Source: a virus. From it: a stretch of DNA of 64,000 bases. A program made the translations under genes and the position numbers. Positions 13,159 to 42,987 of this stretch are shown here, in pieces (within the stretch, counting starts at the first letter, position 1; every line of letters begins with the position of its first letter). The notes beneath the pieces were generated by a model. The model was not told where the DNA came from. It searched no databases and saw nothing but the letters and a program-made list of their open reading frames with translations. The stretch lies in the IMG/VR virus record IMGVR_UViG_3300042197_001007; one strand, 5' to 3'.

Positions 13159-13666
13159 TTTGTTCACAGTGTTGGCGGTCTGGGTGGTTGAAATAATCTT
13201 TTTTACCTTTACCAGTTTGAGTATACATGTTCCGAACGTAGAAGTCAAATCCACGAGGATCATTCTGCCAGTCTTCATCCAGTTGATATGTCTTCAACAC
13301 AGCGTTGAGATCTTCAACCAGTTGAGAATAGAGCTCACGTTTTTTGTCTGTTACAATGTCATCAGCAAAGAAAATCGTAGTTTCATTGTACTTCGCACTG
13401 CTAAAGATGTACGTCACACCTTTTTTAGGAAGACCTCCATTGTAGGTTGGAAAAGTTTGCCTAGAAGATTTACATTCAATGTCTACAACACGACCATTGG
13501 GAAGTTTTACCCTAAAGTCAGGTGAATTTTGTGGACCGTTAGGTTGATACTCATAATCATATCCAAATTTGTCAAGCAACTCCATAACTTGTTTCTCATG
13601 AAGCGGATTATCCTGAGAGTTGGATTTGTATGGGAGGAGCAGAACCTCTTGCCAAAATTGTTTCAT
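13136..13666 (-). CDS. putative PD-(D/E)xK endonuclease (type II restriction enzyme-like)
   Basis: PDF...IECKS motif; overlaps the methyltransferase start by 23 nt. Confidence 0.6.
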   Translation of the reverse strand: MKQFWQEVLLLPYKSNSQDNPLHEKQVMELLDKFGYDYEYQPNGPQNSPDFRVKLPNGRVVDIECKSSRQTFPTYNGGLPKKGVTYIFSSAKYNETTIFFADDIVTDKKRELYSQLVEDLNAVLKTYQLDEDWQNDPRGFDFYVRNMYTQTGKGKKDYFNHPDRQHCEQNVLDFDW

Positions 13667-13668
13667 GA

Positions 13669-13950
13669 TCAAATAAATTGAAGAATGCTAGGGCGCAGTG
13701 GTTTCAGGATCTGCATGGCACTATAGGGTGTGGTATTATCAATGTCAACCACTTTCCCCACAGTTTTAGCATTTACTGGGGCGTAATACTTCTTCAGTTT
13801 ACTGTTGTAAAACCCCCAGATTGATTTGGGTGTTTCATCCGTATAGCTAAACTGCCCATGGTTACAAATCCATATAGAAACTACATTAGTTTTATGTTGT
13901 TGAAACTCATAGGAATATCCACGCGGAGGTGTGTGCGGAAATTCAAACAT
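13669..13950 (-). CDS. conserved cyanophage hypothetical protein
   Basis: ORF track. Confidence 0.65.
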   Translation of the reverse strand: MFEFPHTPPRGYSYEFQQHKTNVVSIWICNHGQFSYTDETPKSIWGFYNSKLKKYYAPVNAKTVGKVVDIDNTTPYSAMQILKPLRPSILQFI

Positions 13951-15251: not shown

Positions 15252-15925
15252 ACTTCATCTTTTTCAAGTTTAGCAAAAAATTCTTTAGCAAACTCTTTAT
15301 ACAGTTCAAAAACCATATCAGCAGTAAACGGACAATCTGGAATCAAATCAAAAAGATCTTGAAGTCCAAGAATTTTTATGTCTGGATATTGTGCAGCAAG
15401 TTCTGGAGGAATAGTTTTCAATACAGGAATAAAATACACCCCTTCATCAGCACCAAGAGCTTTCGCAACTGCTAAGACTTTATCATTAGATTCTCCTTTT
15501 TTCTCTGTGTCAAGTACAATATTACATTTGGATTCCAAATACAAAAACCAAACTCCATCTTTACGCTTGATACGAATATAGTGATCTACTTGACGATTTT
15601 TATTGCCAACTTTAACTTTATTCTTTTTGATCACCTTAACTTTATCTTGACCTTTTTTCTCACCTCTCTTATATTTGCCAACAACAATAATTTCATCTTC
15701 GATGAGATTGATGCCAAGATGAGAAACTATCTTATTAACAAAAATTTCTGTCTGATTACCAAGTTGAATTCGCAATGATTGAAGAGAAAGATTTTTTTTA
15801 ACTAAAAGAATGTAATTTTCTTGTGTTAAACCATATGCTTGATCTATATAAGATTCTATCTTGCCTGGTTTAATATCATCTAAAACACCAGTAGCAAGAT
15901 TTTTAAGGATTTGATAGTTGGTCAT
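15248..15925 (-). CDS. putative PD-(D/E)xK endonuclease (restriction enzyme-like)
   Basis: VDHY...LESKCN...LDTEK; ATGA-coupled to the Dam-like MTase; visibly AT-rich. Confidence 0.5.
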   Translation of the reverse strand: MTNYQILKNLATGVLDDIKPGKIESYIDQAYGLTQENYILLVKKNLSLQSLRIQLGNQTEIFVNKIVSHLGINLIEDEIIVVGKYKRGEKKGQDKVKVIKKNKVKVGNKNRQVDHYIRIKRKDGVWFLYLESKCNIVLDTEKKGESNDKVLAVAKALGADEGVYFIPVLKTIPPELAAQYPDIKILGLQDLFDLIPDCPFTADMVFELYKEFAKEFFAKLEKDEV

Positions 15926-15947
15926 GTGTTTGATTGATTACCCTGTT

Positions 15948-16028
15948 AGTATAGGAGAAGAGGTGGTTCAAGTCAAGGTTCATGAGACCTTATGGTGCTT
16001 GCCCTGTGCCACTTGCTCAACTGTCCCC
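15948..16028 (-). promoter_or_regulatory. early promoter; palindrome displaced by 22 bp
   Basis: TTGACT (15971-15976), 17 bp, TATACT (15948-15953); TGTGCCACTT-GCTC-AACTGTCCCC at 16005-16028; 51-bp gap. Confidence 0.8.
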
Positions 16029-16887: not shown

Positions 16888-18132
16888 TCATTCAGTAGGG
16901 GCAACACCTTTGACAAAGATAGCATCCACAACACGTTGAAGACGCTTCTCAGTCTGCTGACCGTAGTTACTAAACACAGGTACGGTAACGAAACCAGTAC
17001 GCTTGCGGTAGAACTCTAACTGACCAGCGGGGATCTTACCAGATTGTATATCAGCAGCGTCTTGTTTGTCAAGACGAATGACACGACCGATGGTTTGCGC
17101 CATCTCAATGACAGGCAGGTTGCGAAGCAGAATACAATGGGTCAGACCAGGAACGTTGATACCTTCGCTCAGGATGCTATAGTGGAACATGATGAACTTA
17201 CGGCTGGGATCTTTACCCCAGGCATCAAGAGTGTCAAAGAATTCTTGACGACCAACCTTCTGCTTGTTGATGTAAGCACCGTGCTTGCTGGTGATGTGAA
17301 GCACATCATAACCACGCTCAGCAAACTCTGCCATCACACTAGTGCTAGAAAGCAAACGCCACAGCACACGAGTATTAGGAGCAGCAACCAGGATCTTCTG
17401 TGCGCTGTCCTCATCAAGTTGAGATACGATGTCAATCAGCACCTCACGGTCATTCTCAGCAGCGAGGAGAGATTTGTTACGCTCGATATCAACAACGTGA
17501 GACTTGATGGTAGGAGGAATGATGCTACCATTGGCAACCAGTTCAGGAGCAGGAACATTGATCAGTTCCTTACCATAAACAGTAGTGTTGTTCATACTGA
17601 TCTGACCACCACGATACTTAGGAGTGGCAGTGAAATAGTATGCGTTCTTGGCAGTCAGCGAAGCAGCAGCAACTTCTTTATAGAAGTCACGACGCACAGA
17701 ATTGTGTGCCTCATCAAAATAGATCAGATCAACATCAATACCTGCCTCGTTGATACGGCGCAGAGAATTGTAGGTGGTGAAGATAATCTGGTGAGAATTG
17801 ACAGCTTTACAAACACTATCGTGACACTTGATCTCTTGGATCTTAGTGGTACGATTACAATTAACCTCACCGCTATGAACATGGAGGACACAAACATCCA
17901 CCTTGCCATTGAGTTCAGCAAAGAACTCTTCATACAACTGAACTGCCAGCAGGATGCGAGGAGCGCACACTACGACGGTCTGAGGGGTCTCTGCTGCCTG
18001 AAGGCGACGCAGACAGTCAAGGATCATCACAAGGGTCTTGCCGCCGCCCGTAGGGCAGGTCAGGCGACCCAGAGAGGCGGTCAGCAGAGCGTCAAGCATA
18101 CGCTGCTGGTGAGGGCGAAGAGTGAGGGTCAT
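16888..18132 (-). CDS. SF2 DEAD/DEAH-box helicase (type III restriction Res-like)
   Basis: TGGGKT, DEAH, TATP, SEGINVP and QTIGRVIR motifs; start revised to MTLTLRPHQ. Confidence 0.9.
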   Translation of the reverse strand: MTLTLRPHQQRMLDALLTASLGRLTCPTGGGKTLVMILDCLRRLQAAETPQTVVVCAPRILLAVQLYEEFFAELNGKVDVCVLHVHSGEVNCNRTTKIQEIKCHDSVCKAVNSHQIIFTTYNSLRRINEAGIDVDLIYFDEAHNSVRRDFYKEVAAASLTAKNAYYFTATPKYRGGQISMNNTTVYGKELINVPAPELVANGSIIPPTIKSHVVDIERNKSLLAAENDREVLIDIVSQLDEDSAQKILVAAPNTRVLWRLLSSTSVMAEFAERGYDVLHITSKHGAYINKQKVGRQEFFDTLDAWGKDPSRKFIMFHYSILSEGINVPGLTHCILLRNLPVIEMAQTIGRVIRLDKQDAADIQSGKIPAGQLEFYRKRTGFVTVPVFSNYGQQTEKRLQRVVDAIFVKGVAPTE

Positions 18133-33800: not shown

Positions 33801-36800
33801 TTTGGATTGAGATCATCTGCTACATAACGACCACTCTGAATAGTTGCTTGAATACCAGATGTAAAGCGAGCAAAAGCACGATACTCAATACCTTGACCTG
33901 TTAGATCCTTCTTGTATGGATCGTATGCGGCATCTTCATTAAGATTATTTGTCGCAAACTGTGCTGCTGTATAACCAATGTATTCACCAGCTTGAACTGG
34001 GTTTTCAAATCTCGCACCATATACCGATCCAGTAACTGGCTTAAGAAGAACTTTCTGTGGAATTAACTTACGAGTATCGTCAGTTCTTGTCTTAAGGACA
34101 AATCCGTTGATAGGATCTCTTGCGTTCTCAAGATACTTAGGAATGACATAACGGATCTTGTATGTTCTGTCATCTGCTTCTCTTGTATCTTCAAGACGCT
34201 CATACCACATATCAGTGGTTCTTGGTCTGTCCGAATAGTCAGACTGATGTAATCTCCAGAAAATATTTTCTTCCTGAACTGAAGTTGGTTGAGCAGTTAC
34301 TTGATCCTTACACTGAATATACCACTTACCAGTGCTTGATACAGCATCAGTAAATGCTGGATCAAACTTCATTGGCGATCTACGCTTGTTCGCAAATACA
34401 TCAAAGACAAGTCCTACCTGACCGGAAGCAAATGTAATTGGATTTACATTGTTAATCGCATCAGCATGTGTCTTGTGAATGGTAAATACTTTGTCATTTT
34501 GATAACGAGCAAAGAATTCAATCTGAGGATTAATTCTTCCTACGTTTGCGTTCTGTGGATTTGTAACAGCAACGGTAGCATCGTTAGAATAGGTTGATGC
34601 TACAAGAGGTAACTGTCCACCCTCAACTGCCCTAAAGAATACTCTATGTGGAGTTGTGGAAGCAGATGGAACGTCAAAGATGTGTGATACGTCAGTCTCA
34701 ATACCAGCATTAACACTGTTGGTTAGATTACACTCATAGCTATGTAAAGTATACTTATCATCAAGAACAAATTGATAGAGGTCAATTTCTACGTTAGGAT
34801 CAATGCTTGATGTTTCCGACGCATAGATGTAGATACCAGCAGCAGCATTCTCCTTAGAAGTTGCCAACATCAACTTGGTCTGATCACTTCCATTGAAGAA
34901 AGTTGTTGTGCTGTAATCTTCTGGTTGAGTTCTTCTACCAGGAGCAATCACATAATAAGTTCTGTTTGTTTCAAATCCTTTTGGAAGTCTGATAAGACGC
35001 TTATCAACTTCAACATACTTACCAGTGTCAACATCAAAACGAGGACGTGGAACAAGTCTTACAGGAGTTCCAGTCTCAAAGTTGTGAGCATTGGTAGAAC
35101 CATAACCAGTTGTATCAATTGTAAAGACAGTCGCTCTTGAAGAAAGAAGTGCTGTATTTACAGTCTGTTCTTGACGAGCAACTGTTCCAAGACCGCTGTT
35201 GATGATTGTAGTGATGTTTCCAACCAAAGTTTCAATTGCGTTGGCAACACCAGCACATTCTCTCTGTGTTGGAGCAGAAGGTGTGTATGCTTGAGTATCT
35301 TGAATAACATCTGGATTAGATGCTTCTGGTCCTACAGTAACTGTCTTAGGTAGAATATTTGCCCACTGACCTTTTTCAAATGTGAAGTATAGTTTGGTTG
35401 TAGTGCTGTTCTGTAGAGCATTTACTGTATTGCCAGTGGTAAGTCTTGCGTTGGCAACACCCAATTCAATTTGAGTATTGCTTACAATTCTCTTAACAAA
35501 TGTATCTTTAGGAATATTGCTGTAAATAGCAACAGCATTAGATTGTAGCAATCCATTGACATATGGAGTTGGAGATGTAGCATACTCAACAACTCTCATA
35601 CCAATGACAATACCACGAGTATCAGCAACATTAACAATTGCTGAACCAGATGTTGTTACACAGTTGACAGCAAGAACATCAAAATTACGCATCGCAGCAG
35701 TTGCGAGCTGACCAACATAGTTCCAAGCATCAATTGTTTCTGGTTTTTCTCCATCAATATAAGTTAGATTATTTCCAACATAGTATGCTTCACCTGCTTG
35801 AATGCTATTGATGTTACCACCAAGTCTAAGGTCATTAACAAGAGCATCAACAATATATGATACGTCACGATAACACTTAGATTGAGTGGCATTAACAATG
35901 AAGTCACCTGGATTTGCTGTTGGTAGACCAGCAAGAGATCCTGTGCTGATCGCATCGGTAACAATATCAAATAGGTTCTCAATGGATGAACGAACGTTGG
36001 CACAATCCCACTCTCCATTGCTGAGAGGTGGAAGAGAATTGAGATTACCAGCATAAAGACTATCAACAACAATGCTGATCAGAACATCAATTGTTGCTAA
36101 AACATCAGAGCAATTACCAAGGGCATAAGTTGTTGGTTGTACTGGAGCGGTTCTGGTGATGCCAGTTAGATTGCCAACACCACCATCATTACCGATTGCT
36201 TGAATGATAATACCAAACAGAGTATCAGTAGCAGCAATCGCAGATCCGCACTTAGGTAGAAGTTCATCAGCATCCCAGTCATGAGTTTGAGTGAAATCAA
36301 ATACCTGAGTTTCGTTATTTCCTGCTGTTGGTGTTACAGCGACATTGTTGATAACATCAATGGTTACTTTCTTTGCTTCTAAGAATACTTTAGCAGCTTC
36401 ATCACGCTCAGCATCAATAAATGTCTGAACTGGTTGACCATTGAATACGTTTGTTACATAAACAAGAGCAGCATCATAGGTCTTAGAGTTTCCACCAAAC
36501 TTAATATCATATGCGATTTGATCTAATACATCATAAACATCGTCAAGACAATCTTGCTCTGTATTGCCAGTTTGTGGAACATATGAAGGATATGCCAACT
36601 TCATACGCTGATATGCTTCTTTCGCAATAAACTTCTTGTTGTCCATAATGGTCAAGAAGACATTGCTATGAATGTCAGAGAATACTGCTGGTTCTTCAGT
36701 ATTATCCAGTGTGATTGTTAGATCTCTATCATAGTACTGATTATTTACAGCACGGTTCATAAGATCCTGTGCTCTTCTAAATGCTGTAATGGAAGGTCCA

Positions 36801-39800
36801 GTTTCTCCAGCAACACCGTTTGTAAGCAGAGTTGTTGCGTTGGTGAAATATTCCTTCGTTGCTGCGATAGTATACTCGTTACCACCAAACCAAAGGTCTT
36901 GAGCAACAGCATCAACAATGTGACCGATATCTCTACGGCACTTAGTTTCACCAGTCAAGAATGTTCCAGCATTCTCAGCAGGAAGAGAGTTTAGGTTACC
37001 AGCAGTTACAGCAGCAGTGACAATACCAGCAAGAGTTGTGATTGCTGACTGAACGTTAGCACATGAAGTTGGATCTACATTACTACCAGTCGCAGGATCG
37101 GCAGTGATTGTGAGATCCTTATAGTAGAGTTGATTGGTGATTGCTCTACGCATGAACTCAGCAGCTTCATTGAATGCTGTATTGCTCTGAGCAGTTTCTC
37201 CAACTAAACCGTTGCTGATTGGAGTTGTGGCATTCGTGAAATACTGTTGAATGAAAGTTCTGGTGTGCTTGTTACCGCCAGTGAATACGTCAACTGAAAT
37301 CGCATCAATAAAGTATCCAATGTCACGAGCACACTTCTTCATACCAGCAGGAGCAGATCCTTTGTTGATTTGAAGAGGAAGTGAATTTAGATTGCCATCA
37401 TTAATAATTGTTGTGATGATGCCACTCAAGGTATCAATTGCTGAACGAACGTTAGCACATGAAGTTGGATCTGTATTGCTTCCAGTCGCAGGATCAGCAG
37501 TAATTGTAAGATCCTTAACTGTAAGTTGGTTGGTGATAGCAGACTTCATCAAAGTCTTTGCTTGGTTGAAAGCATAGATGCTTTCTGTTACTTCGCCAAC
37601 TAAACCGTTGCTGATTGGTGTTGTAGCATTTGTAAAGTATTCAGCAGCAAATCTGTATGAATACTCGTTACCACGAATGAAGAGGTCAAGCGAAACAGCA
37701 TCAACAAAGTATCCAAGATCTCTCTTACACTTTGTTTCAGTTGAAGCAACACCAGGATATTGTGTGACCATGTTGGTCCAAGCAGTGTTGACAATCTCTG
37801 TCTTGTTCTGTTGGATTAGACGGTAGCTATCATAGAAACGCGAATCTGCTGTTGTTTGTGCGTCACCAGGGAAGTAGAAATCTGGATAATCAACCGCAAT
37901 CTTCGCAAGTGCTCTATCAGCAATCTCTTTGCTGTTACGACGAATGAGACGGAACGCATCAGCAAAACGTGATTGTGCGTTGCTCTGTGTATCACCAGGA
38001 ATGTAGAAGTCTGGATGATAAACAGCAATCTCAGCAAGTGCTGCGTCAAGAATGAACTCTCTGTTGTCAATAATTCTATTGCGAGCATCCTTGTAGCGAC
38101 CAGCAGGATCTTGCTTATTCGCAGCATCAACAGTTACACCTTCACTGTTCAATCCAAGTGCTGCTGAACCAGTGCTACCAGCAATTACACCATAAGGAGC
38201 TAGAATACTGGTTGGATCTGGATCATAAATGTCTGCCTTTACAGTGAGTAGGTTAGCAACTGCTTTCTTACATAGATCTCTTGCTCTATTGAAAGCAAAT
38301 ACAGCATAGTTCTCTTCGCCCACCAGACCGTTCTGTAATGGCGTTCCATCGCCATTGAAGTAGAACTTGGTAGCTTCAATCGTATTGAGGTTTCCACCGT
38401 CTCTGAGGTCTTCTGCGATGGCATCAACGATGAAACCAATGTCACGCTTACACTTACCATTCGCAACACCTTGGATATTACCAATACCAAATGTATCAAC
38501 CATCTGCTGGAATGCCGTATCAACAATCTCTTGACGATTGTTGAGAATTAGATTACGAGCATCAAAGTAACGACCAGCAGCAGGATTTAGACCAGGATTA
38601 ACATAAGGAATGTTCTGAAGTCTTGGATACTTTTCAAGAATATATCCAAAAACTTCCTCTTGGATCATTGTGCGATTGCTTTCAATCAGATTAGCAGCAT
38701 CAGCATAGACACTATTGATTGAAATACCGGTTGGATTGAGAATAGATCCTTTAGCAATATACTTTAGGAAACCAGTTGGTTCTAATTCAACATTAAAGAT
38801 TTCTCCAGTTCCTGGTGCTGGATCAAGTTTTACATATAGTTTGTCACTTGATTTCGCACCAAGTCTGTAACCATCAATTGTAGCAGCAGGTCTATCAGCA
38901 GGAGTAATGATGTCATCACTGCCCAAGAATAGTTTTGTATAGTTGTTAGGGTTCTGAATAGTTCCCTGAATATCAACAGTATAATATGCGATCTTCTCAA
39001 TATTTTCAGATCCTTCAACTGCTCTCTTTGGTGGAATAATATCAGTAATGTATCCACCTTTATCTTGGTTGAAAGCAAATCCTTTGAAACCAATTGCGTG
39101 TAGAGATGTATTACCAAAGTTTGAGTTGGAGTTGGTGATGGACATGTCTCCACCACTTTCCATTAAGAAGTGATCCGCAAAACCAACCGCGAAGATAGAA
39201 ACGTTCTGAATGAATGCGTCTTCTGAAGCACGAACGTGGAAGTTTCTCCACTCATCTTTCCAGTAACTGTCGCCCTTTGCGTGATAAGGAACCGTAGCAA
39301 ATGCGTCAGTCAGTGATGCCTGGTTCCAAGTGTTTGAATACTCGTCGTAACGAATGAATGCTCTATCGTCTTTCTGTAGAGAAACACCAGTATACTGAGC
39401 AATAACCATGGATCTAAATCCAGTGGCTTTTAGACCATTTGCCCAGATACCACAGATACCCCAGGTAGAACGAATTGAAACGTTGAAGACGTATGGAGAA
39501 GCAGATTCGACGCTATCAACCTCAGCAAGAGTTTGTGCGTTTTGTCCAAGAGCAGGAGTTGTATCTACACTGATTGTTTGTCCTGATACAATATTATTGC
39601 CAATTCCACCTACAACGAAAGGAACTTCGTATGTGAATTTACGAGGATCGTTTTCATCAATTTCTTTGATTGGGAAAAATCCTTCAAGAACATCATCAAT
39701 GTTGGTGTTTGAAATTGAAACAAACTGACCAGCAAAATATCCGTGATCAACTTTGGTTGTTACTTGAACTTCCGTTGTTGAAGCAGGAATACTTGGATCA

Positions 39801-40651
39801 GTTGTCGCATCGACAAGTTTCAAACTTTCAATAACACGACTGTCAGAAAGAGGTCCAACAATTCTGTTCTCTTGAATACTGAAATCAAACTCACCAGGAT
39901 CGTCAATTGTTGGTTGATATGCTGAGAATGCCTTAGCAATCTTTCTATAGAACAGTCCTAGCTCTTCACTATCAGCATATTCAAATACTGTTAGTTTGTG
40001 GTGAGAATAGTTAGGAGCAGTAAGTTTGGTGAAGTCAGTTGGATCGTAATAAACTTCACCAGTTCCAGCAGCAGAGTTGTAAAGAGGTGATTCTGAAGTT
40101 GTCTGACCATCTTTAATCGTAAACTGCCAGAAATAGCAACCACCAGTTACATTGAAGATCGCAGAACGTGGAACAGTAACAGATGCTGGATCTGGAACGT
40201 AGAGAGGTCTGATCGTTGTTCTACGAAGATCATAACCAACAAGTGATGAACCACGAGGAATGATCGCACCACCTTCAGTGTTGTTAAACTTATAAAGTAC
40301 GTTGTTTGGATTTGAAATATCAAGAATGCTATTATCAGTCCAAGCATTCAGAGCTTGATCAAAACCAAATACATCAATGCCAGTAGTATCTACAAGACCA
40401 GGACGGTTGTCAATATAGTGAATACCAGGCATCAGCATGATGCTGAACTGGTCAAAACGGTCATTATCCTTACCAGGAAGATAAGAATATCTTGCGATTT
40501 CTAAGAAAGCACGTTGGATACTTTTGAAAGGGGTGATTGGTGAATTACCTCTGTTCGATAACGCATCTGTTGCGTTAAAATCATCAGGCGAAACATAAAG
40601 ATACTTACCAGTTTTTGAACTGATAAGGTTATCCAGACGTGTTAATGGCAT
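27839..40651 (-). CDS. giant virion structural / long tail fibre protein (4270 aa) with six phycobiliprotein-like repeats
   Basis: Uninterrupted ORF after a late promoter, upstream of collar proteins; N-terminal YV...G.D.N.G...PFK.I..A pattern; repeats KCxRD(I/L)G..VDA...DL..GGN. Confidence 0.8.
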   Translation of the reverse strand: MPLTRLDNLISSKTGKYLYVSPDDFNATDALSNRGNSPITPFKSIQRAFLEIARYSYLPGKDNDRFDQFSIMLMPGIHYIDNRPGLVDTTGIDVFGFDQALNAWTDNSILDISNPNNVLYKFNNTEGGAIIPRGSSLVGYDLRRTTIRPLYVPDPASVTVPRSAIFNVTGGCYFWQFTIKDGQTTSESPLYNSAAGTGEVYYDPTDFTKLTAPNYSHHKLTVFEYADSEELGLFYRKIAKAFSAYQPTIDDPGEFDFSIQENRIVGPLSDSRVIESLKLVDATTDPSIPASTTEVQVTTKVDHGYFAGQFVSISNTNIDDVLEGFFPIKEIDENDPRKFTYEVPFVVGGIGNNIVSGQTISVDTTPALGQNAQTLAEVDSVESASPYVFNVSIRSTWGICGIWANGLKATGFRSMVIAQYTGVSLQKDDRAFIRYDEYSNTWNQASLTDAFATVPYHAKGDSYWKDEWRNFHVRASEDAFIQNVSIFAVGFADHFLMESGGDMSITNSNSNFGNTSLHAIGFKGFAFNQDKGGYITDIIPPKRAVEGSENIEKIAYYTVDIQGTIQNPNNYTKLFLGSDDIITPADRPAATIDGYRLGAKSSDKLYVKLDPAPGTGEIFNVELEPTGFLKYIAKGSILNPTGISINSVYADAANLIESNRTMIQEEVFGYILEKYPRLQNIPYVNPGLNPAAGRYFDARNLILNNRQEIVDTAFQQMVDTFGIGNIQGVANGKCKRDIGFIVDAIAEDLRDGGNLNTIEATKFYFNGDGTPLQNGLVGEENYAVFAFNRARDLCKKAVANLLTVKADIYDPDPTSILAPYGVIAGSTGSAALGLNSEGVTVDAANKQDPAGRYKDARNRIIDNREFILDAALAEIAVYHPDFYIPGDTQSNAQSRFADAFRLIRRNSKEIADRALAKIAVDYPDFYFPGDAQTTADSRFYDSYRLIQQNKTEIVNTAWTNMVTQYPGVASTETKCKRDLGYFVDAVSLDLFIRGNEYSYRFAAEYFTNATTPISNGLVGEVTESIYAFNQAKTLMKSAITNQLTVKDLTITADPATGSNTDPTSCANVRSAIDTLSGIITTIINDGNLNSLPLQINKGSAPAGMKKCARDIGYFIDAISVDVFTGGNKHTRTFIQQYFTNATTPISNGLVGETAQSNTAFNEAAEFMRRAITNQLYYKDLTITADPATGSNVDPTSCANVQSAITTLAGIVTAAVTAGNLNSLPAENAGTFLTGETKCRRDIGHIVDAVAQDLWFGGNEYTIAATKEYFTNATTLLTNGVAGETGPSITAFRRAQDLMNRAVNNQYYDRDLTITLDNTEEPAVFSDIHSNVFLTIMDNKKFIAKEAYQRMKLAYPSYVPQTGNTEQDCLDDVYDVLDQIAYDIKFGGNSKTYDAALVYVTNVFNGQPVQTFIDAERDEAAKVFLEAKKVTIDVINNVAVTPTAGNNETQVFDFTQTHDWDADELLPKCGSAIAATDTLFGIIIQAIGNDGGVGNLTGITRTAPVQPTTYALGNCSDVLATIDVLISIVVDSLYAGNLNSLPPLSNGEWDCANVRSSIENLFDIVTDAISTGSLAGLPTANPGDFIVNATQSKCYRDVSYIVDALVNDLRLGGNINSIQAGEAYYVGNNLTYIDGEKPETIDAWNYVGQLATAAMRNFDVLAVNCVTTSGSAIVNVADTRGIVIGMRVVEYATSPTPYVNGLLQSNAVAIYSNIPKDTFVKRIVSNTQIELGVANARLTTGNTVNALQNSTTTKLYFTFEKGQWANILPKTVTVGPEASNPDVIQDTQAYTPSAPTQRECAGVANAIETLVGNITTIINSGLGTVARQEQTVNTALLSSRATVFTIDTTGYGSTNAHNFETGTPVRLVPRPRFDVDTGKYVEVDKRLIRLPKGFETNRTYYVIAPGRRTQPEDYSTTTFFNGSDQTKLMLATSKENAAAGIYIYASETSSIDPNVEIDLYQFVLDDKYTLHSYECNLTNSVNAGIETDVSHIFDVPSASTTPHRVFFRAVEGGQLPLVASTYSNDATVAVTNPQNANVGRINPQIEFFARYQNDKVFTIHKTHADAINNVNPITFASGQVGLVFDVFANKRRSPMKFDPAFTDAVSSTGKWYIQCKDQVTAQPTSVQEENIFWRLHQSDYSDRPRTTDMWYERLEDTREADDRTYKIRYVIPKYLENARDPINGFVLKTRTDDTRKLIPQKVLLKPVTGSVYGARFENPVQAGEYIGYTAAQFATNNLNEDAAYDPYKKDLTGQGIEYRAFARFTSGIQATIQSGRYVADDLNPNIKYLELTVYDHAVDATNFPGLRNEIFTTVKITAPQGGEFVTNKTQSITANQVSFSGYSSGLANIHAYYSVGGDHYLIIKNVRGGKLEYSEYDNVRFTQGSVFADMLEDQDMGKSLPLKTLIRKGYPEYYWRQNGANVYTITPGDRIQDDAGVEYYVESVADAGIIEDTFYIFASETLQRRIAGQQDGIYYLTALRGNISPFPTGAGVINNFKNFKFSQPVSRLYPLNYRNDPLWFQKNGTTNEEKNYYAALIDPPQAFSAADNYTHGLVTVNDYKNSVTRELVEDLITQSAFIENEYSGANAIQAQDGNATSGSEDRLIPIAGNSSVLSDQRYYVELRRPSIARAGNHTFEYLGFGPGNYSTGLPARQEVVLTPDQDFYAQSKKQDAGIVFYTGINSQGDLYIGNRRINAITGEETFIDAAVLADDGDENDVIGGLVTTFDTPVTFNQNITIVGGDGSLVSSVEAPLVIAVQDEDLTQQRDVLIIRSNVSSVDPVTQLEQDEGLDRTAFRPPTNGDIRISKNRVQSAVFGFNARGNGQAYMFQTHTSAGIPSNITPNQTALIAQGGTRISSAQFITYGGVTPRPGDVLIKGLEVGKTGSFGWILANYYQQIPNNSIFTITFDGSNVVKLTFKSADTGVNISNQDIGITSGSQIRVNNFYYDPRLNLTWVVYSPPGDAFSSTNNYVHFQVIDQIPQAVENWADIIAGTAVGATPPSIEFSNASWKEIGVIGAEALRTETENIGNYKLGINTIARAPHTAHTNAFVDPATTDPRANLDVVGKGYISGKTLSTAPNNFLANANPTNRTFNAISDAFVVGGDSLAPTNYSTLRVDTRTVAITEAGRGNNLGRIGINTDETVTAKQLNRALVVVGDARFTEDVRFERDIEVHGNGSILSSVAEIRTNVALGTFNLVTDSTFTGTLNIGNKVENIFIGDTTSEDQFIVIGSDSLHSNISLGVTPDARPSDGALTISKVEIGGAYLNNESQSFTRIKTKSFKVDGDFQLGARRTISDTVRLSTTAGTVSFFSDSGSASTIDFALNASEINIAGQGGTTTINNQLEVIASAKFNGDVLICGGVASFSFVGSRGQLGSTISAHQDGIINETTFNKNIDIVNVLVKSNTDEGYNEVDTAGSGAWGGLTFQAPVLNIGGTPVVEPQSLPALTGDLYYLPLLNAPLKQNGEPYFVENDYIIINSAVSASGHPEILQVVELVRTNVAPYYIKVRRRPLGTFTAVLTNHPDRTPIYKVNVQFDSTWTEQSLDGTGPTDNVYLAEFGGSLTNNDYVIVDRTDTNNDGIFDQGEVIKVVSPLEQQVQKFRISSDCSSEENDVFVVNSVTGEVLIGNPDVPGSQLTLNSTLKLSGGCGTLSKIQFTATATAGSSVLSGVTVTSVGKTINDLRLGDYLHNITNQSPLEFDKDTKISGINTATSEIYLNSPALGSSTISATFEARRNEKFEITNGEGVTTFQVDTCTGTTHIGSQYGRIEIEYAFSGNNTTNTTTSSIVTAFDSGNITRAYGYWYDPQIAAEGGPDTTIRATATGSSNQVQVPVQSLGVGTGRFDIDDLVFIGTPTAASTGVGRFIIGKVIQVITDVTNPTIVVAAPGDGIDTSASFIPGDSVFATGNVVRRVIKHKEFANIIDVEMRTRVITGSSSQYCSIILDKGYIVQQKLDYQGWIALANNSGAQIWASVEGRLQGVVHETSMNEQRTDGAIPYRSGKLEIASDVKLIGGNFEIYDSVNQTRLFGFVNDDGHADHQGLLVWDAGVVARGDFFLFSGQDPENVITDPYSYVPSFSADNLGNVTARKTLTVTGIPSAAPSTSLKQLSVENLGINGAKEFAVKQDNSIDSFGLENFYTSSGARHTRYISAASAEEDLTLIPNIMYMVNVQASQTLVLILPTAPVTGDVVRIVEVGGNLNYNTSLVLRTAESSGVRIQGDNTGTLLGGRLTPYPSGELVVQTPNAAFGLIYLGGTDSNGQVGIPTAVQGWWLMEV

Positions 40652-40691
40652 GATTAATACTGACCCGTAGATTATGATTTATCCTTGGATT

Positions 40692-40699
40692 TATTTATA
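40692..40699 (-). promoter_or_regulatory. T4-type late promoter
   Basis: Perfect TATAAATA about 40 nt upstream of the giant gene ATG. Confidence 0.8.
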
Positions 40700-40814
40700 C
40701 GCCAGGATCGTAGTTGTTCCGCAATATTAGAATTCTTGAAATTTCTCTAAGGCAAATAAAAATATAATTAAACTGTTCTTTCCAGGTTACATCTCCGCGA
40801 ATTTTGTCTAACAT
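40695..40814 (-). CDS. small hypothetical protein (start revised to MLDKIRG)
   Basis: The track ORF start lies inside tRNA-Asn. Confidence 0.45.
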   Translation of the reverse strand: MLDKIRGDVTWKEQFNYIFICLREISRILILRNNYDPGV

Positions 40815-40828
40815 ATTTTTCTCCAAAA

Positions 40829-40901
40829 CTCCCCCACCTGGACTCGAACCAGGAACCCCAGAGTTAACAGCTCCGTGCTCTGCCAATTGAGCTATAAGGG
40901 A
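40829..40901 (-). tRNA. trnN: tRNA-Asn(GTT)
   Basis: Cloverleaf TCCCTTA...TGGGGGA-G; anticodon loop CTGTTAA; TTCGAGT T-loop. Confidence 0.95.
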
Positions 40902-40907
40902 ATGAAA

Positions 40908-41078
40908 TTAGGACTGTTTGGTGTCCATTAGATATTCTACAGTGTTTGCTATATCATTCATAGCATCACGTAGATGTGGTTGTTGTCCGCTTTCCTGACG
41001 AACAATTGGTCTATGATCATCTGTAAGTGACCAGCGCCATTGTTTCATTATAGCACAGTACCACAGATTAATTTTCAT
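40908..41078 (-). CDS. conserved cyanophage hypothetical protein (start MKINLWY)
   Basis: 3' part of the track ORF. Confidence 0.6.
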   Translation of the reverse strand: MKINLWYCAIMKQWRWSLTDDHRPIVRQESGQQPHLRDAMNDIANTVEYLMDTKQS

Positions 41079-41223
41079 TTTTGAAACTTTCCAATCGTAA
41101 CCAATTAGCGAGGGCGTTGAGTTGCATTCTTTTGTCTTCAGTGAAATCATGTTGTTTATTGAAAAGATAGAAATCAATAGCCTCTAGTGCTAGTTGTCTG
41201 TCTGCTTGTGAAATGAGTGACAT
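41068..41223 (-). CDS. hypothetical protein (start MSLISQ)
   Basis: The track start lies in tRNA-Ala. Confidence 0.6.
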   Translation of the reverse strand: MSLISQADRQLALEAIDFYLFNKQHDFTEDKRMQLNALANWLRLESFKNEN

Positions 41224-41242
41224 AGTGAGTATAAAGAACTCA

Positions 41243-41315
41243 TGGAGAATAGGAGACTCGAACTCCTGACAGCCTGCTTGCAAAGCAGGTGCTCTACCAA
41301 CTGAGCTAATTCCCC
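41243..41315 (-). tRNA. trnA: tRNA-Ala(TGC)
   Basis: Cloverleaf; G3:U70 Ala identity pair; anticodon TGC. Confidence 0.95.
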
Positions 41316-41392
41316 TGGGGGCGGGAGTTGGATTTGAACCAACGACCTGCGGCTTATGAGACCGCTGAACTACCAGACTGTTCCATCCCGCT
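41316..41392 (-). tRNA. trnM: tRNA-Met(CAT), initiator-like, with encoded CCA
   Basis: A1:C72 mismatch, A11:U24 pair, TTCAAAT T-loop, anticodon CAT. Confidence 0.85.
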
Positions 41393-41493
41393 ATAAGGTG
41401 CCGCTAGTGCCAGCGGCACACCAGGCACTTGGTTGTTTCGGATATGATGATCCCGAAACATATGATAAGATCGGATATTTCCAACCTTATCAA
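41393..41493 (-). ncRNA. unassigned structured RNA between tRNA-Thr and tRNA-Met
   Basis: Four consecutive hairpins filling about 100 nt; two have complementary loops AGUGCC/GGCACU. Confidence 0.6.
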
Positions 41494-41567
41494 AGCCCAA
41501 GGTCGGACTTGAACCGACGACCTACGGTTTACAAAACCGTTGCTCTATCCAGCTGAGCTACTCAGGC
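41494..41567 (-). tRNA. trnT: tRNA-Thr(TGT)
   Basis: Cloverleaf; ACGGT-TTTGTAA-ACCGT anticodon arm. Confidence 0.95.
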
Positions 41568-42082
41568 ATTCTGACAAATTTAAATGCTCCCCAATCAGAT
41601 CCCCATATTTTAGCATGAGTTTCGGCATGAAGACCACGATCAACTACATGATATTCAGTTTTAGTGAGAGTGACTTCGTTTTGAACATAGGTTTTTACAC
41701 CCTGCCAATCAACCCAGCACTCACAGGTGGAGGTGCCACCTTGAAACATTTCAGGTCCCGTCTGCGTAATAATAATATCACACCCCTCTCGGTATGTCAA
41801 GATGTCATCTGTGATAAGATCAAGATTTTGACATTCAACAAACCGTTTTGGATCTTCAATCTCGTAATTCTTGAGACGGAACTGACCCTTCTCAATCACT
41901 ACATCAATTACAAACTGACGATATGGGTTATTTAGAAGATAGTTATAAGCTTGTTCACCATAGAAGCGATAATCGGAAATTTTCCGATGTTGTACCCGAA
42001 TATGAGCATAACGAGTTGGATGAGATTGTGCTTGATGTTTATTGGCAAAAGTGCCTTCAAGATATTCAAGAAACTGGTTCAT
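41558..42082 (-). CDS. cpeT: CpeT/CpcT-like T-type phycobilin lyase
   Basis: G.F.N..QA...P..YAHI.V...Y.EQAY...PYRQ...GCD...WG pattern. Confidence 0.85.
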   Translation of the reverse strand: MNQFLEYLEGTFANKHQAQSHPTRYAHIRVQHRKISDYRFYGEQAYNYLLNNPYRQFVIDVVIEKGQFRLKNYEIEDPKRFVECQNLDLITDDILTYREGCDIIITQTGPEMFQGGTSTCECWVDWQGVKTYVQNEVTLTKTEYHVVDRGLHAETHAKIWGSDWGAFKFVRMPE

Positions 42083-42347
42083 CTGGCAAAACTTCGGGAT
42101 TAACTAAGTCCAATTCAAATAACACTGGATGGCATTCTTCAGCAATAAGATAGTCAGAATAACGAAAAATTTCGTCCATTGTATATTCTTGATTGAGTGC
42201 TGCTTCTGCCAAGATCCATTTGTCTTGTTTTTCCTGTTCTTCTAATATATCAAATGCGAACGGAATATTCTCAATATAATACATCAAAACGGGTTCATTG
42301 TCAACAAAGACATGCTTCCGAGTGATTGTATATCTGAAAACTGCCAT
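42066..42347 (-). CDS. hypothetical protein
   Basis: ORF track. Confidence 0.65.
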   Translation of the reverse strand: MAVFRYTITRKHVFVDNEPVLMYYIENIPFAFDILEEQEKQDKWILAEAALNQEYTMDEIFRYSDYLIAEECHPVLFELDLVNPEVLPDEPVS

Positions 42348-42390
42348 TACATTTGATCTCTCAAAATTTCCTGTTACTATTTAACAGGAA

Positions 42391-42463
42391 TACCCGTGGT
42401 CGGATTCGAACCGACACTGGAGGGATTTTAAGTCCCCTGTCTCTGCCGTTGGACTACACGGGC
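42391..42463 (-). tRNA. trnL: tRNA-Leu(TAA) with short variable loop
   Basis: 73-nt cloverleaf; loop CTTAAAA; variable region only about 5 nt; A73. Confidence 0.85.
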
Positions 42464-42468
42464 ATAGG

Positions 42469-42541
42469 TGCTCCTTGAGGGGATCGAACCCACCTTAGCC
42501 GAATTATGAGTTCGGTGCATTCACCAGATTGCTAAAGGAGC
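42469..42541 (-). tRNA. tRNA with CAT anticodon (elongator Met or lysidine Ile2)
   Basis: GCTCCTT/AAGGAGC acceptor stem; CCGAA-CTCATAA-TTCGG anticodon arm. Confidence 0.85.
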
Positions 42542-42543
42542 GA

Positions 42544-42615
42544 TGGGGATGCTGGGAGTTGAACCCAGACTAACCCGTTATAAGCAGGCCGCTCTAACCA
42601 TTAAGCTACACCCCC
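42544..42615 (-). tRNA. trnI: tRNA-Ile(TAT)
   Basis: Cloverleaf; loop CTTATAA; A73. Confidence 0.85.
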
Positions 42616-42622
42616 ATGGGGT

Positions 42623-42748
42623 TCATATACTTAACAGTTTTTTCTTTAACGCCTGACGACGTGCTTTTGCTTGGCGTATCGCCTGTGGTTTCAGACTACG
42701 CTTCTGCTGCTTTTTGCTGTGATGCTGCCAGTTGGGAAGCGTAGTCAT
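42623..42748 (-). CDS. small basic cyanophage protein (41 aa, not in ORF track)
   Basis: MTTLPNWQHHSKKQQKRSLKPQAIRQAKARRQALKKKLLSI*; directly after a promoter. Confidence 0.65.
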   Translation of the reverse strand: MTTLPNWQHHSKKQQKRSLKPQAIRQAKARRQALKKKLLSI

Positions 42749-42958: not shown

Positions 42959-42987
42959 ATTGTACTCGGTTTCTGAGGTTATGTCAA
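42959..42987 (-). promoter_or_regulatory. sigma70-type promoter
   Basis: TTGACA (42982-42987), 17 bp, TACAAT (42959-42964). Confidence 0.8.

Follow-up and report, generated by a model that had tools for sequence, protein, structure and literature searches.

The window analysed here is a stretch of 64,000 nucleotides (nt) of viral DNA, IMG/VR record IMGVR_UViG_3300042197_001007, from a T-like cyanomyovirus related to S-RSM4, with which it shares 83% nucleotide identity over the locus of interest. That locus carries cpeT, which codes for a homologue of the T-type bilin lyases, and, on the same strand, a giant virion fibre gene with an array of phycobiliprotein-like (PBPL) domains; both genes lie on the minus strand, and the gap between the end of cpeT and the fibre ATG measures 906 nt (Table 1). 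The original prediction, which placed the lyase gene about 0.9 kb upstream of the giant gene on the same strand, was accurate in this respect. It went on to propose that the two form a lyase-substrate pair, with the phage's own structural protein as the acceptor of the bilin, and the evidence bearing on that proposal is weighed below.

The window CpeT matches PF06206 at 146.2 bits (cut-off 21; E 1.3e-42) over profile positions 2-181 of 181, and its residues 7-172 align with residues 13-187 of Nostoc CpcT (4o4o) at 89.6 bits (E 2.5e-24). The protein of phage P-HM1 (PhiCpeT, 5hi8) aligns with it at 56 bits (E 4e-14). The window protein is full length and, by these scores, nearer to cyanobacterial CpcT than to the truncated P-HM1 protein, and a homologue search with it returned close phage CpeTs only. 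The CpeT proteins measure 174 amino acids (aa) in the window, 145-165 aa in most phage clades and 136 aa in P-HM1, as against about 200 aa for CpcT. Across an alignment with 31 relatives, in which identity falls as low as 46%, 32 columns are invariant, which argues that the gene is under selection. Judged from its sequence, cpeT is a true T-type bilin lyase gene in a phage version that purifying selection maintains.

The fibre protein contains six PBPL domains (aa 690-818, 934-1059, 1060-1191, 1192-1322, 1324-1461 and 1545-1675), each with one Cys84-like cysteine (aa 734, 975, 1107, 1238, 1368 and 1593). The whole protein scores 39.6 bits against PF00502 (cut-off 22.2), with no single stretch passing alone; this family is a poor detector of phage PBPL domains, and profiles A2 and A3 were used instead. 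A PBPL profile built from 91 diverse domain instances out of 80 related IMG/VR loci finds only phycobiliproteins when run against the PDB (best E 3.6e-6), its positions 3-66 aligning with phycobiliprotein residues 34-104 and its conserved Cys falling on Cys84. Over the 91 instances the Cys84-like Cys is conserved in 96%, the Asp three residues further on in 97%, the Arg two residues further on in 76%, and a GGN turn in 96-98%. In 16% of the domains that Arg is replaced by Asp, as it is in each of the three P-HM2 domains that were looked at. Within the window, the Cys84/Arg86/Asp87 signature reads CxRD in five of the six domains and CLDD in the remaining one.

Structure prediction adds modest detail to this picture. 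An AlphaFold model of one PBPL domain has four helices at moderate confidence (pLDDT 68). Weak fold matches were found by VIA over model residues 43-118 with allophycocyanin, ApcE, phycoerythrin and photocobilin (Z 5.1-5.8), the top matches, at Z 5.5-5.8, being the bilin-binding domains of photocobilin, allophycocyanin and ApcE; a Foldseek search of the PDB with the same domain model gave no match with E <1. A two-domain model (aa 1055-1335) reached pLDDT 52, too poor for Cys-Cys distances, and a predicted complex of CpeT with PBPL domain 3, both entered as alignments, gave ipSAE values of 0.00 and 0.01, which are evidence neither way.

Table 1. Features of the cpeT-fibre locus, in order of transcription.
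Feature	Position in window	Strand	Remarks
Sigma-70-like promoter match TTGACA-17-TACAAT	42959-42987	minus	11/12 positions; precedes the tRNA/orf93/cpeT block
tRNA-Ile(tat), tRNA-Met(cat), tRNA-Leu(taa)	42390-42616	minus	upstream of orf93 and cpeT
orf93, 93-aa open reading frame (ORF)	42066-42347	minus	no family; stop overlaps cpeT start by 17 nt
cpeT, T-type bilin lyase homologue, 174 aa	41558-42082	minus	PF06206; CpcT 4o4o; invariant columns
tRNA-Thr(tgt)	41494-41567	minus	first 10 nt are the last cpeT codons and stop
Three-hairpin spacer, 101 nt	41393-41493	minus	between tRNA-Met and tRNA-Thr; minimum free energy -44.5 kcal/mol, z -6.3
tRNA-Met(cat) and tRNA-Ala(tgc)	41316-41392 and 41243-41315	minus	
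Two small ORFs (about 51 and 56 aa from ATGs)	40908-41222	minus	no family
tRNA-Asn(gtt)	40828-40902	minus	
TATAAATA box	40692-40699	minus	T4-type late-promoter consensus; 41 nt ahead of fibre ATG
Virion fibre gene, 4270 aa	27839-40651	minus	relatives annotated 'short tail fibre' or 'tail protein'
Array of six PBPL domains	35627-38584	minus	profile matches

If the PBPL domains were substrates of a lyase, which cysteine would carry the bilin? Host T-type lyases act at beta-Cys153/155, as the original prediction stated and as the literature agrees (Six et al. 2007, PMC2246261; review PMC10452541). Sites of the Cys84 type are served by S/U-type and E/F-type lyases, and T-type lyases are not known to serve them (PMC2246261). 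The suggestion that the cysteine of the SCANV helix matches the beta-155 position is not supported on closer inspection. In a profile alignment this Cys falls on phycobiliprotein residues ~37-45, not on beta-153/155; its column holds Cys in 37 of the 91 instances (41%) and mostly Tyr or Phe in the others; and it starts an N-terminal helix module that is also found alone, at aa 1514 and 1799. A Cys at the true beta-155 spacing, 71-73 residues past the Cys84-like Cys, occurs in 9 of 82 PBPL instances and is not conserved; C1664 in domain 6 is the only one in the window. Since a beta-155-spaced Cys is this scarce and the SCANV Cys does not appear to be its equivalent, the candidate site, if the PBPL domains take a bilin at all, would be of the Cys84 type.

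The N-terminal helix shows some behaviour of its own. Solitary copies without the KCxRD core are found at aa 645-686, 848-893, 891-938, 1510-1547 and 1799-1830, and they occur in both an R-Y-F-D and a Cys-A-N-V form. Of 37 domains with the Cys form of the helix, 36 carry Arg, not Asp, at the second residue past the Cys84-like Cys.

The association between cpeT and PBPL domains extends well beyond the window. Among 27 complete genomes, 25 of them Kyanoviridae, both features are present in 19, neither in 7 (P-SSM2, S-SM2, S-SSM7, P-TIM68, Bellamy, S-CRM01 and S-TIM5), PBPL only in 1 and cpeT only in none (Fisher's exact p = 9e-6), so that the co-occurrence on which the proposed pairing depended is found. 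On a tree of the gp27-like protein, the joint state of the two features needs two changes only, one in the clade of P-SSM2, S-SSM7, P-TIM68, S-SM2 and Bellamy and one in S-CRM01; since two changes suffice, very few independent events lie behind the concordance. Phage S-SKS1 (NC_020851, 17382-17771), which falls outside the Kyanoviridae, lacks cpeT but bears a single PBPL domain, in a tail-fibre protein of 928 aa, and this suggests that the domain moves between the fibre genes of unrelated cyanophages.

Detection of cpeT required some care. A tblastn search with the window CpeT undercounts cpeT: it picks up 110 phage records, where the repeat region picks up 353. The many PBPL-only genomes that these counts appeared to imply had to be abandoned when profile searches found a divergent cpeT in nearly all of the negatives tested, the PF06206 profile doing so in five of the five apparently cpeT-negative genomes to which it was applied. 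PF06206 itself gave a false negative in S-SSM4 (HQ316583; L143 5077-5541), the cpeT of which was recovered by phmmer and a phage profile, and all negatives were therefore rechecked with a broader profile (A5) and weak positives confirmed. Other divergent cpeT genes that are weak against PF06206 or were missed lie at 17188-17658 in ACG-2014d, 15521-15967 in S-ShM2 and 13401-13835 in P-SSM7. Because such genes escape tblastn and are poorly detected by PF06206, cpeT is much commoner among cyanomyoviruses than a recent review has it (31 of 153 genomes; PMC10452541); Sullivan et al. 2010 had reported it in 12 of 16 cyanomyoviruses (PMC3037559).

Gene order gives a more divided answer. A CpeT with 45% or more identity to that of the window is encoded in 80 IMG/VR loci, and every one of them has the same layout. 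Among the 49 loci with at least 4 kb of sequence downstream of cpeT, a PBPL-bearing giant ORF follows on the same strand in 48, at a median gap of 799 nt and usually with two to four tRNAs between, which argues that the arrangement is not due to chance. The synteny that the original prediction proposed to test therefore holds within the S-RSM4/S-CAM/ACG-2014e clade. It is lost in all other clades, where the two features are ~30-140 kb apart, and the neighbourhood is thus conserved in a single clade and not across lineages. In Syn9 the gp27-like gene and gp5 flank cpeT, at 15.5 kb, while the PBPL domains lie ~58 kb away, at 74-75 kb, in a ~6000-aa fibre gene. Similar separations are seen in S-WAM1 (cpeT 15 kb, PBPL 71-75 kb), S-CAM7 (157 kb, 188-197 kb), S-SCSM1 (175 kb, 36-37 kb), S-SZBM1 (35 kb, 152-157 kb) and P-HM2 (20 kb, 55-84 kb), and the two genes of S-IOM18 are also far apart. 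For a phage structural protein as the acceptor, then, co-occurrence speaks in favour, while the two changes on the tree and the loss of synteny elsewhere do not. On these comparisons of genomes, the lyase-substrate reading is partly supported, by evidence that is real but shallow.

On the minus strand the window runs from gp26 through genes for a tape-measure-like protein, a gp27-like protein, gp5 and a 348-aa protein to the sigma-70-like box and the tRNA/orf93/cpeT block, and then through tRNA-Thr, the spacer, tRNA-Met, tRNA-Ala, the two small ORFs, tRNA-Asn and the TATAAATA box to the fibre gene. Between cpeT and the fibre gene there are thus, as originally described, only tRNAs (four), a structured RNA (the three-hairpin spacer) and tiny ORFs (two), all on the minus strand. 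The overlap of the orf93 stop with the cpeT start indicates that the two are probably translationally coupled, and cpeT with this small coupled ORF is located in a tRNA island between baseplate-hub genes (gp27-like, gp5) and fibre genes. The best DNA matches of positions 39800-42700 come from freshwater metagenomes of several studies, with a share of words of 0.81-0.97 and including near-identical DNA, which points to this S-RSM4-like phage being a lake virus; its named relatives are marine.

Are cpeT and the fibre gene expressed together? The sigma-70-like box is a consensus match only, and such matches are not enriched over shuffles in the region. The TATAAATA box can be called suggestive only, because its two copies in the window are not above chance. 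Taken together, the two boxes suggest that the cpeT block and the fibre gene may be separate, differently timed transcription units. Contigs from lake metatranscriptomes cover pieces of the cpeT and fibre genes of relatives, and none of them bridges both, so these contigs are uninformative on co-transcription.

Several details of the intervening region deserve mention. The tRNA gene that follows cpeT begins within it, so that its 5' end contains the last three cpeT codons and the stop (41558-41567, minus strand). An overlap of exactly 10 nt is found in 39 related loci, and 49 of 76 have one of 8-11 nt, usually with tRNA-Thr or tRNA-Asp; in Syn9 the cpeT stop likewise overlaps a tRNA-Val (loci L001-L080; L087 6974-6983). 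In a joint transcript, processing of the tRNA 5' end by RNase P would leave cpeT without its stop codon. This overlapping tRNA gene is a more constant neighbour of cpeT than is the PBPL-bearing gene. No Rfam family matches the hairpin spacer at 41393-41493; in some relatives from RNA libraries, ~200 nt there are replaced by a 21-nt stretch. Positions 40989-41263, the small-ORF region from tRNA-Asn to tRNA-Ala, are covered by RNA-library contigs from two lake samples (225-267 nt, with only 6 differences), for which carry-over of DNA is not excluded.

What, then, does the phage lyase do? The likeliest account, to which we give about even odds, is a host-directed role for CpeT, as the product of a classical auxiliary metabolic gene. 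The beta-barrel of the protein would bind phycoerythrobilin or phycocyanobilin, as expected from its family, and would either attach the bilin to Cys-153/155 of host beta-phycobiliproteins or hold it for the host lyases. The fibre gene would then be a separate late transcription unit, its closeness to cpeT an arrangement inherited within one phage clade rather than an enzyme-substrate operon, and the genome-wide co-occurrence a matter of shared descent. Such a host-side role is argued for by the family membership, the CpcT-like full-length sequence and the known beta-Cys153 site of T-type lyases, by the lack of a conserved beta-153/155 Cys in the PBPL domains, by the separate promoter-like signals, and by an adjacency confined to one clade and a concordance that needs only two changes on the tree. 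The rise in host phycoerythrin during S-PM2 infection, attributed to cpeT, also counts in its favour (review PMC2984593). A number of observations nevertheless pull the other way. All 25 Kyanoviridae are concordant (19 with both features, 6 with neither; Fisher p 6e-6, uncorrected for phylogeny), whereas a control auxiliary gene of similar frequency, psbD, is discordant with cpeT in 9 of the same 25. Turnover is therefore usual for auxiliary genes in these phages, yet cpeT is kept in every PBPL-bearing kyanovirus lineage sampled, including phages of Prochlorococcus (P-SSM4, P-SSM7, P-RSM4, P-RSM1 and P-HM2 have both features), the hosts of which are without phycobilisomes. The P-HM1 CpeT is said to form a tight, stable and fluorescent complex with phycoerythrobilin, and on its own reportedly gave no transfer to host CpeB. 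Finally, Sullivan et al. 2010 considered the role of phage cpeT unsettled, since cpeE, S and R are absent (PMC3037559).

A virion-directed activity we regard as possible though the less probable account. CpeT, made from the tRNA island, would give its bilin to the Cys84-like Cys of the KCxRD helix in the phage's PBPL domains, or would hold the bilin for autocatalytic addition there; the SCANV Cys would not be the target. The PBPL domains belong to late-made fibre and baseplate proteins, and the closeness of the two genes would be a by-product of their functional link. A virion target would account for the perfect co-occurrence in the Kyanoviridae, without a single cpeT-only genome and with a psbD control that does not track cpeT, and for the PBPL ORF downstream of cpeT in nearly every locus of the clade; it is in keeping, too, with the conserved Cys, Asp and Arg, with a profile that retrieves nothing but phycobiliproteins from the PDB and places its Cys at Cys84, with best though weak fold matches to bilin-binding domains, and with the position of cpeT, always in the baseplate-hub and fibre part of the genome. 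Ranged against it are the site preference of T-type lyases, known for beta-153/155 and not for Cys84-type sites, a correlation resting on about two independent joint gain or loss events, the replacement of Arg by Asp in a minority of domains and in the three inspected of P-HM2, a domain of only four helices modelled at moderate confidence, and the PBPL domain of S-SKS1, which has no cpeT. We know of no report of pigmented cyanophage virions, and this too counts against it. An additional consideration is adsorption. Liu et al. 2019, who also mention proposed light-induced changes in tail fibres, saw P-SSM2 adsorb in the dark but neither P-HM1 nor P-HM2 (PMC6628666). P-HM2 has both cpeT and PBPL and P-SSM2 has neither; for P-HM1 the comparison covers cpeT, which it has. 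The pattern fits a virion-borne chromophore, in three phages only. The fuller proposal, that CpeT loads bilin on the Cys84-like Cys of fibre or baseplate PBPL domains and that the resulting virion chromophores act as the light sensor for light-dependent adsorption (S-PM2, P-HM1/P-HM2), we consider unlikely. Less probable still is a phage CpeT that no longer transfers bilin and serves, while infection lasts, only to sequester or buffer the free pigment, perhaps against phototoxicity or as a means of altering host signalling; the PBPL linkage would then be a coincidence. The strong divergence and shortening of phage CpeTs (145-165 aa, and 136 aa in P-HM1) would suit such a holder without an acceptor, as would the stable complex and the lack of direct transfer reported for P-HM1 CpeT, but the window protein is full length and shares its 32 invariant positions with its relatives, and the perfect concordance of cpeT with PBPL would be left unexplained.

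The choice between a host target and a virion target matters for two long-standing questions. The role of cyanophage cpeT has been a question since 2005: the gene is solitary, with no further lyase genes beside it, and Prochlorococcus phages keep it. The cause of light-dependent adsorption in cyanomyoviruses has likewise long gone unexplained. The strict link between cpeT and PBPL at the level of genomes makes both bench-testable, and makes it worth testing whether CpeT loads pigment onto the virus particle. If the link reflects shared descent only, cpeT is an auxiliary gene like any other, with an incidental gene neighbourhood.

How does the locus compare with known systems? With the cyanobacterial CpcT/CpeT/RpcT proteins (PF06206; 4O4O) the window CpeT shares full-length homology, above the Pfam cut-off, but its gene is phage-encoded and solitary, cpeS/E/R partners being absent; it is placed in a tRNA island and has its stop codon inside a tRNA gene. 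The P-HM1 protein (PDB 5HI8) is of the same family and from the same kind of phage, yet it aligns well only over the N-terminal 60 residues and is 136 aa long as against 174 aa; in P-HM-type genomes, moreover, cpeT does not adjoin a PBPL-bearing gene, as it does in the window. The PBPL domains resemble phycobiliprotein alpha and beta subunits (PF00502) in the KCxRD helix and GG(T/N), which align with Cys84, Arg86 and Asp87. They differ in having ~130 aa and, as modelled, four helices, where the phycobiliprotein fold comprises helices X, Y, A, B, E, F', F, G and H, and in lacking a conserved beta-153/155 Cys while having extra conserved Asp residues at Cys+9 and Cys+14. Cyanobacterial lyase genes are clustered with those of their substrates, as in cpcBA-cpcEF and in cpeCDESTR, where cpeT lies in the phycoerythrin region. 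In the window, by comparison, tRNAs, hairpins and a late-promoter-like box intervene, the closeness is confined to one clade and the place of the 'substrate' is taken by a 4270-aa virion protein whose four-helix domains are truncated; in both arrangements, nonetheless, a lyase gene is located near a gene for a phycobiliprotein-type domain, on the same strand.

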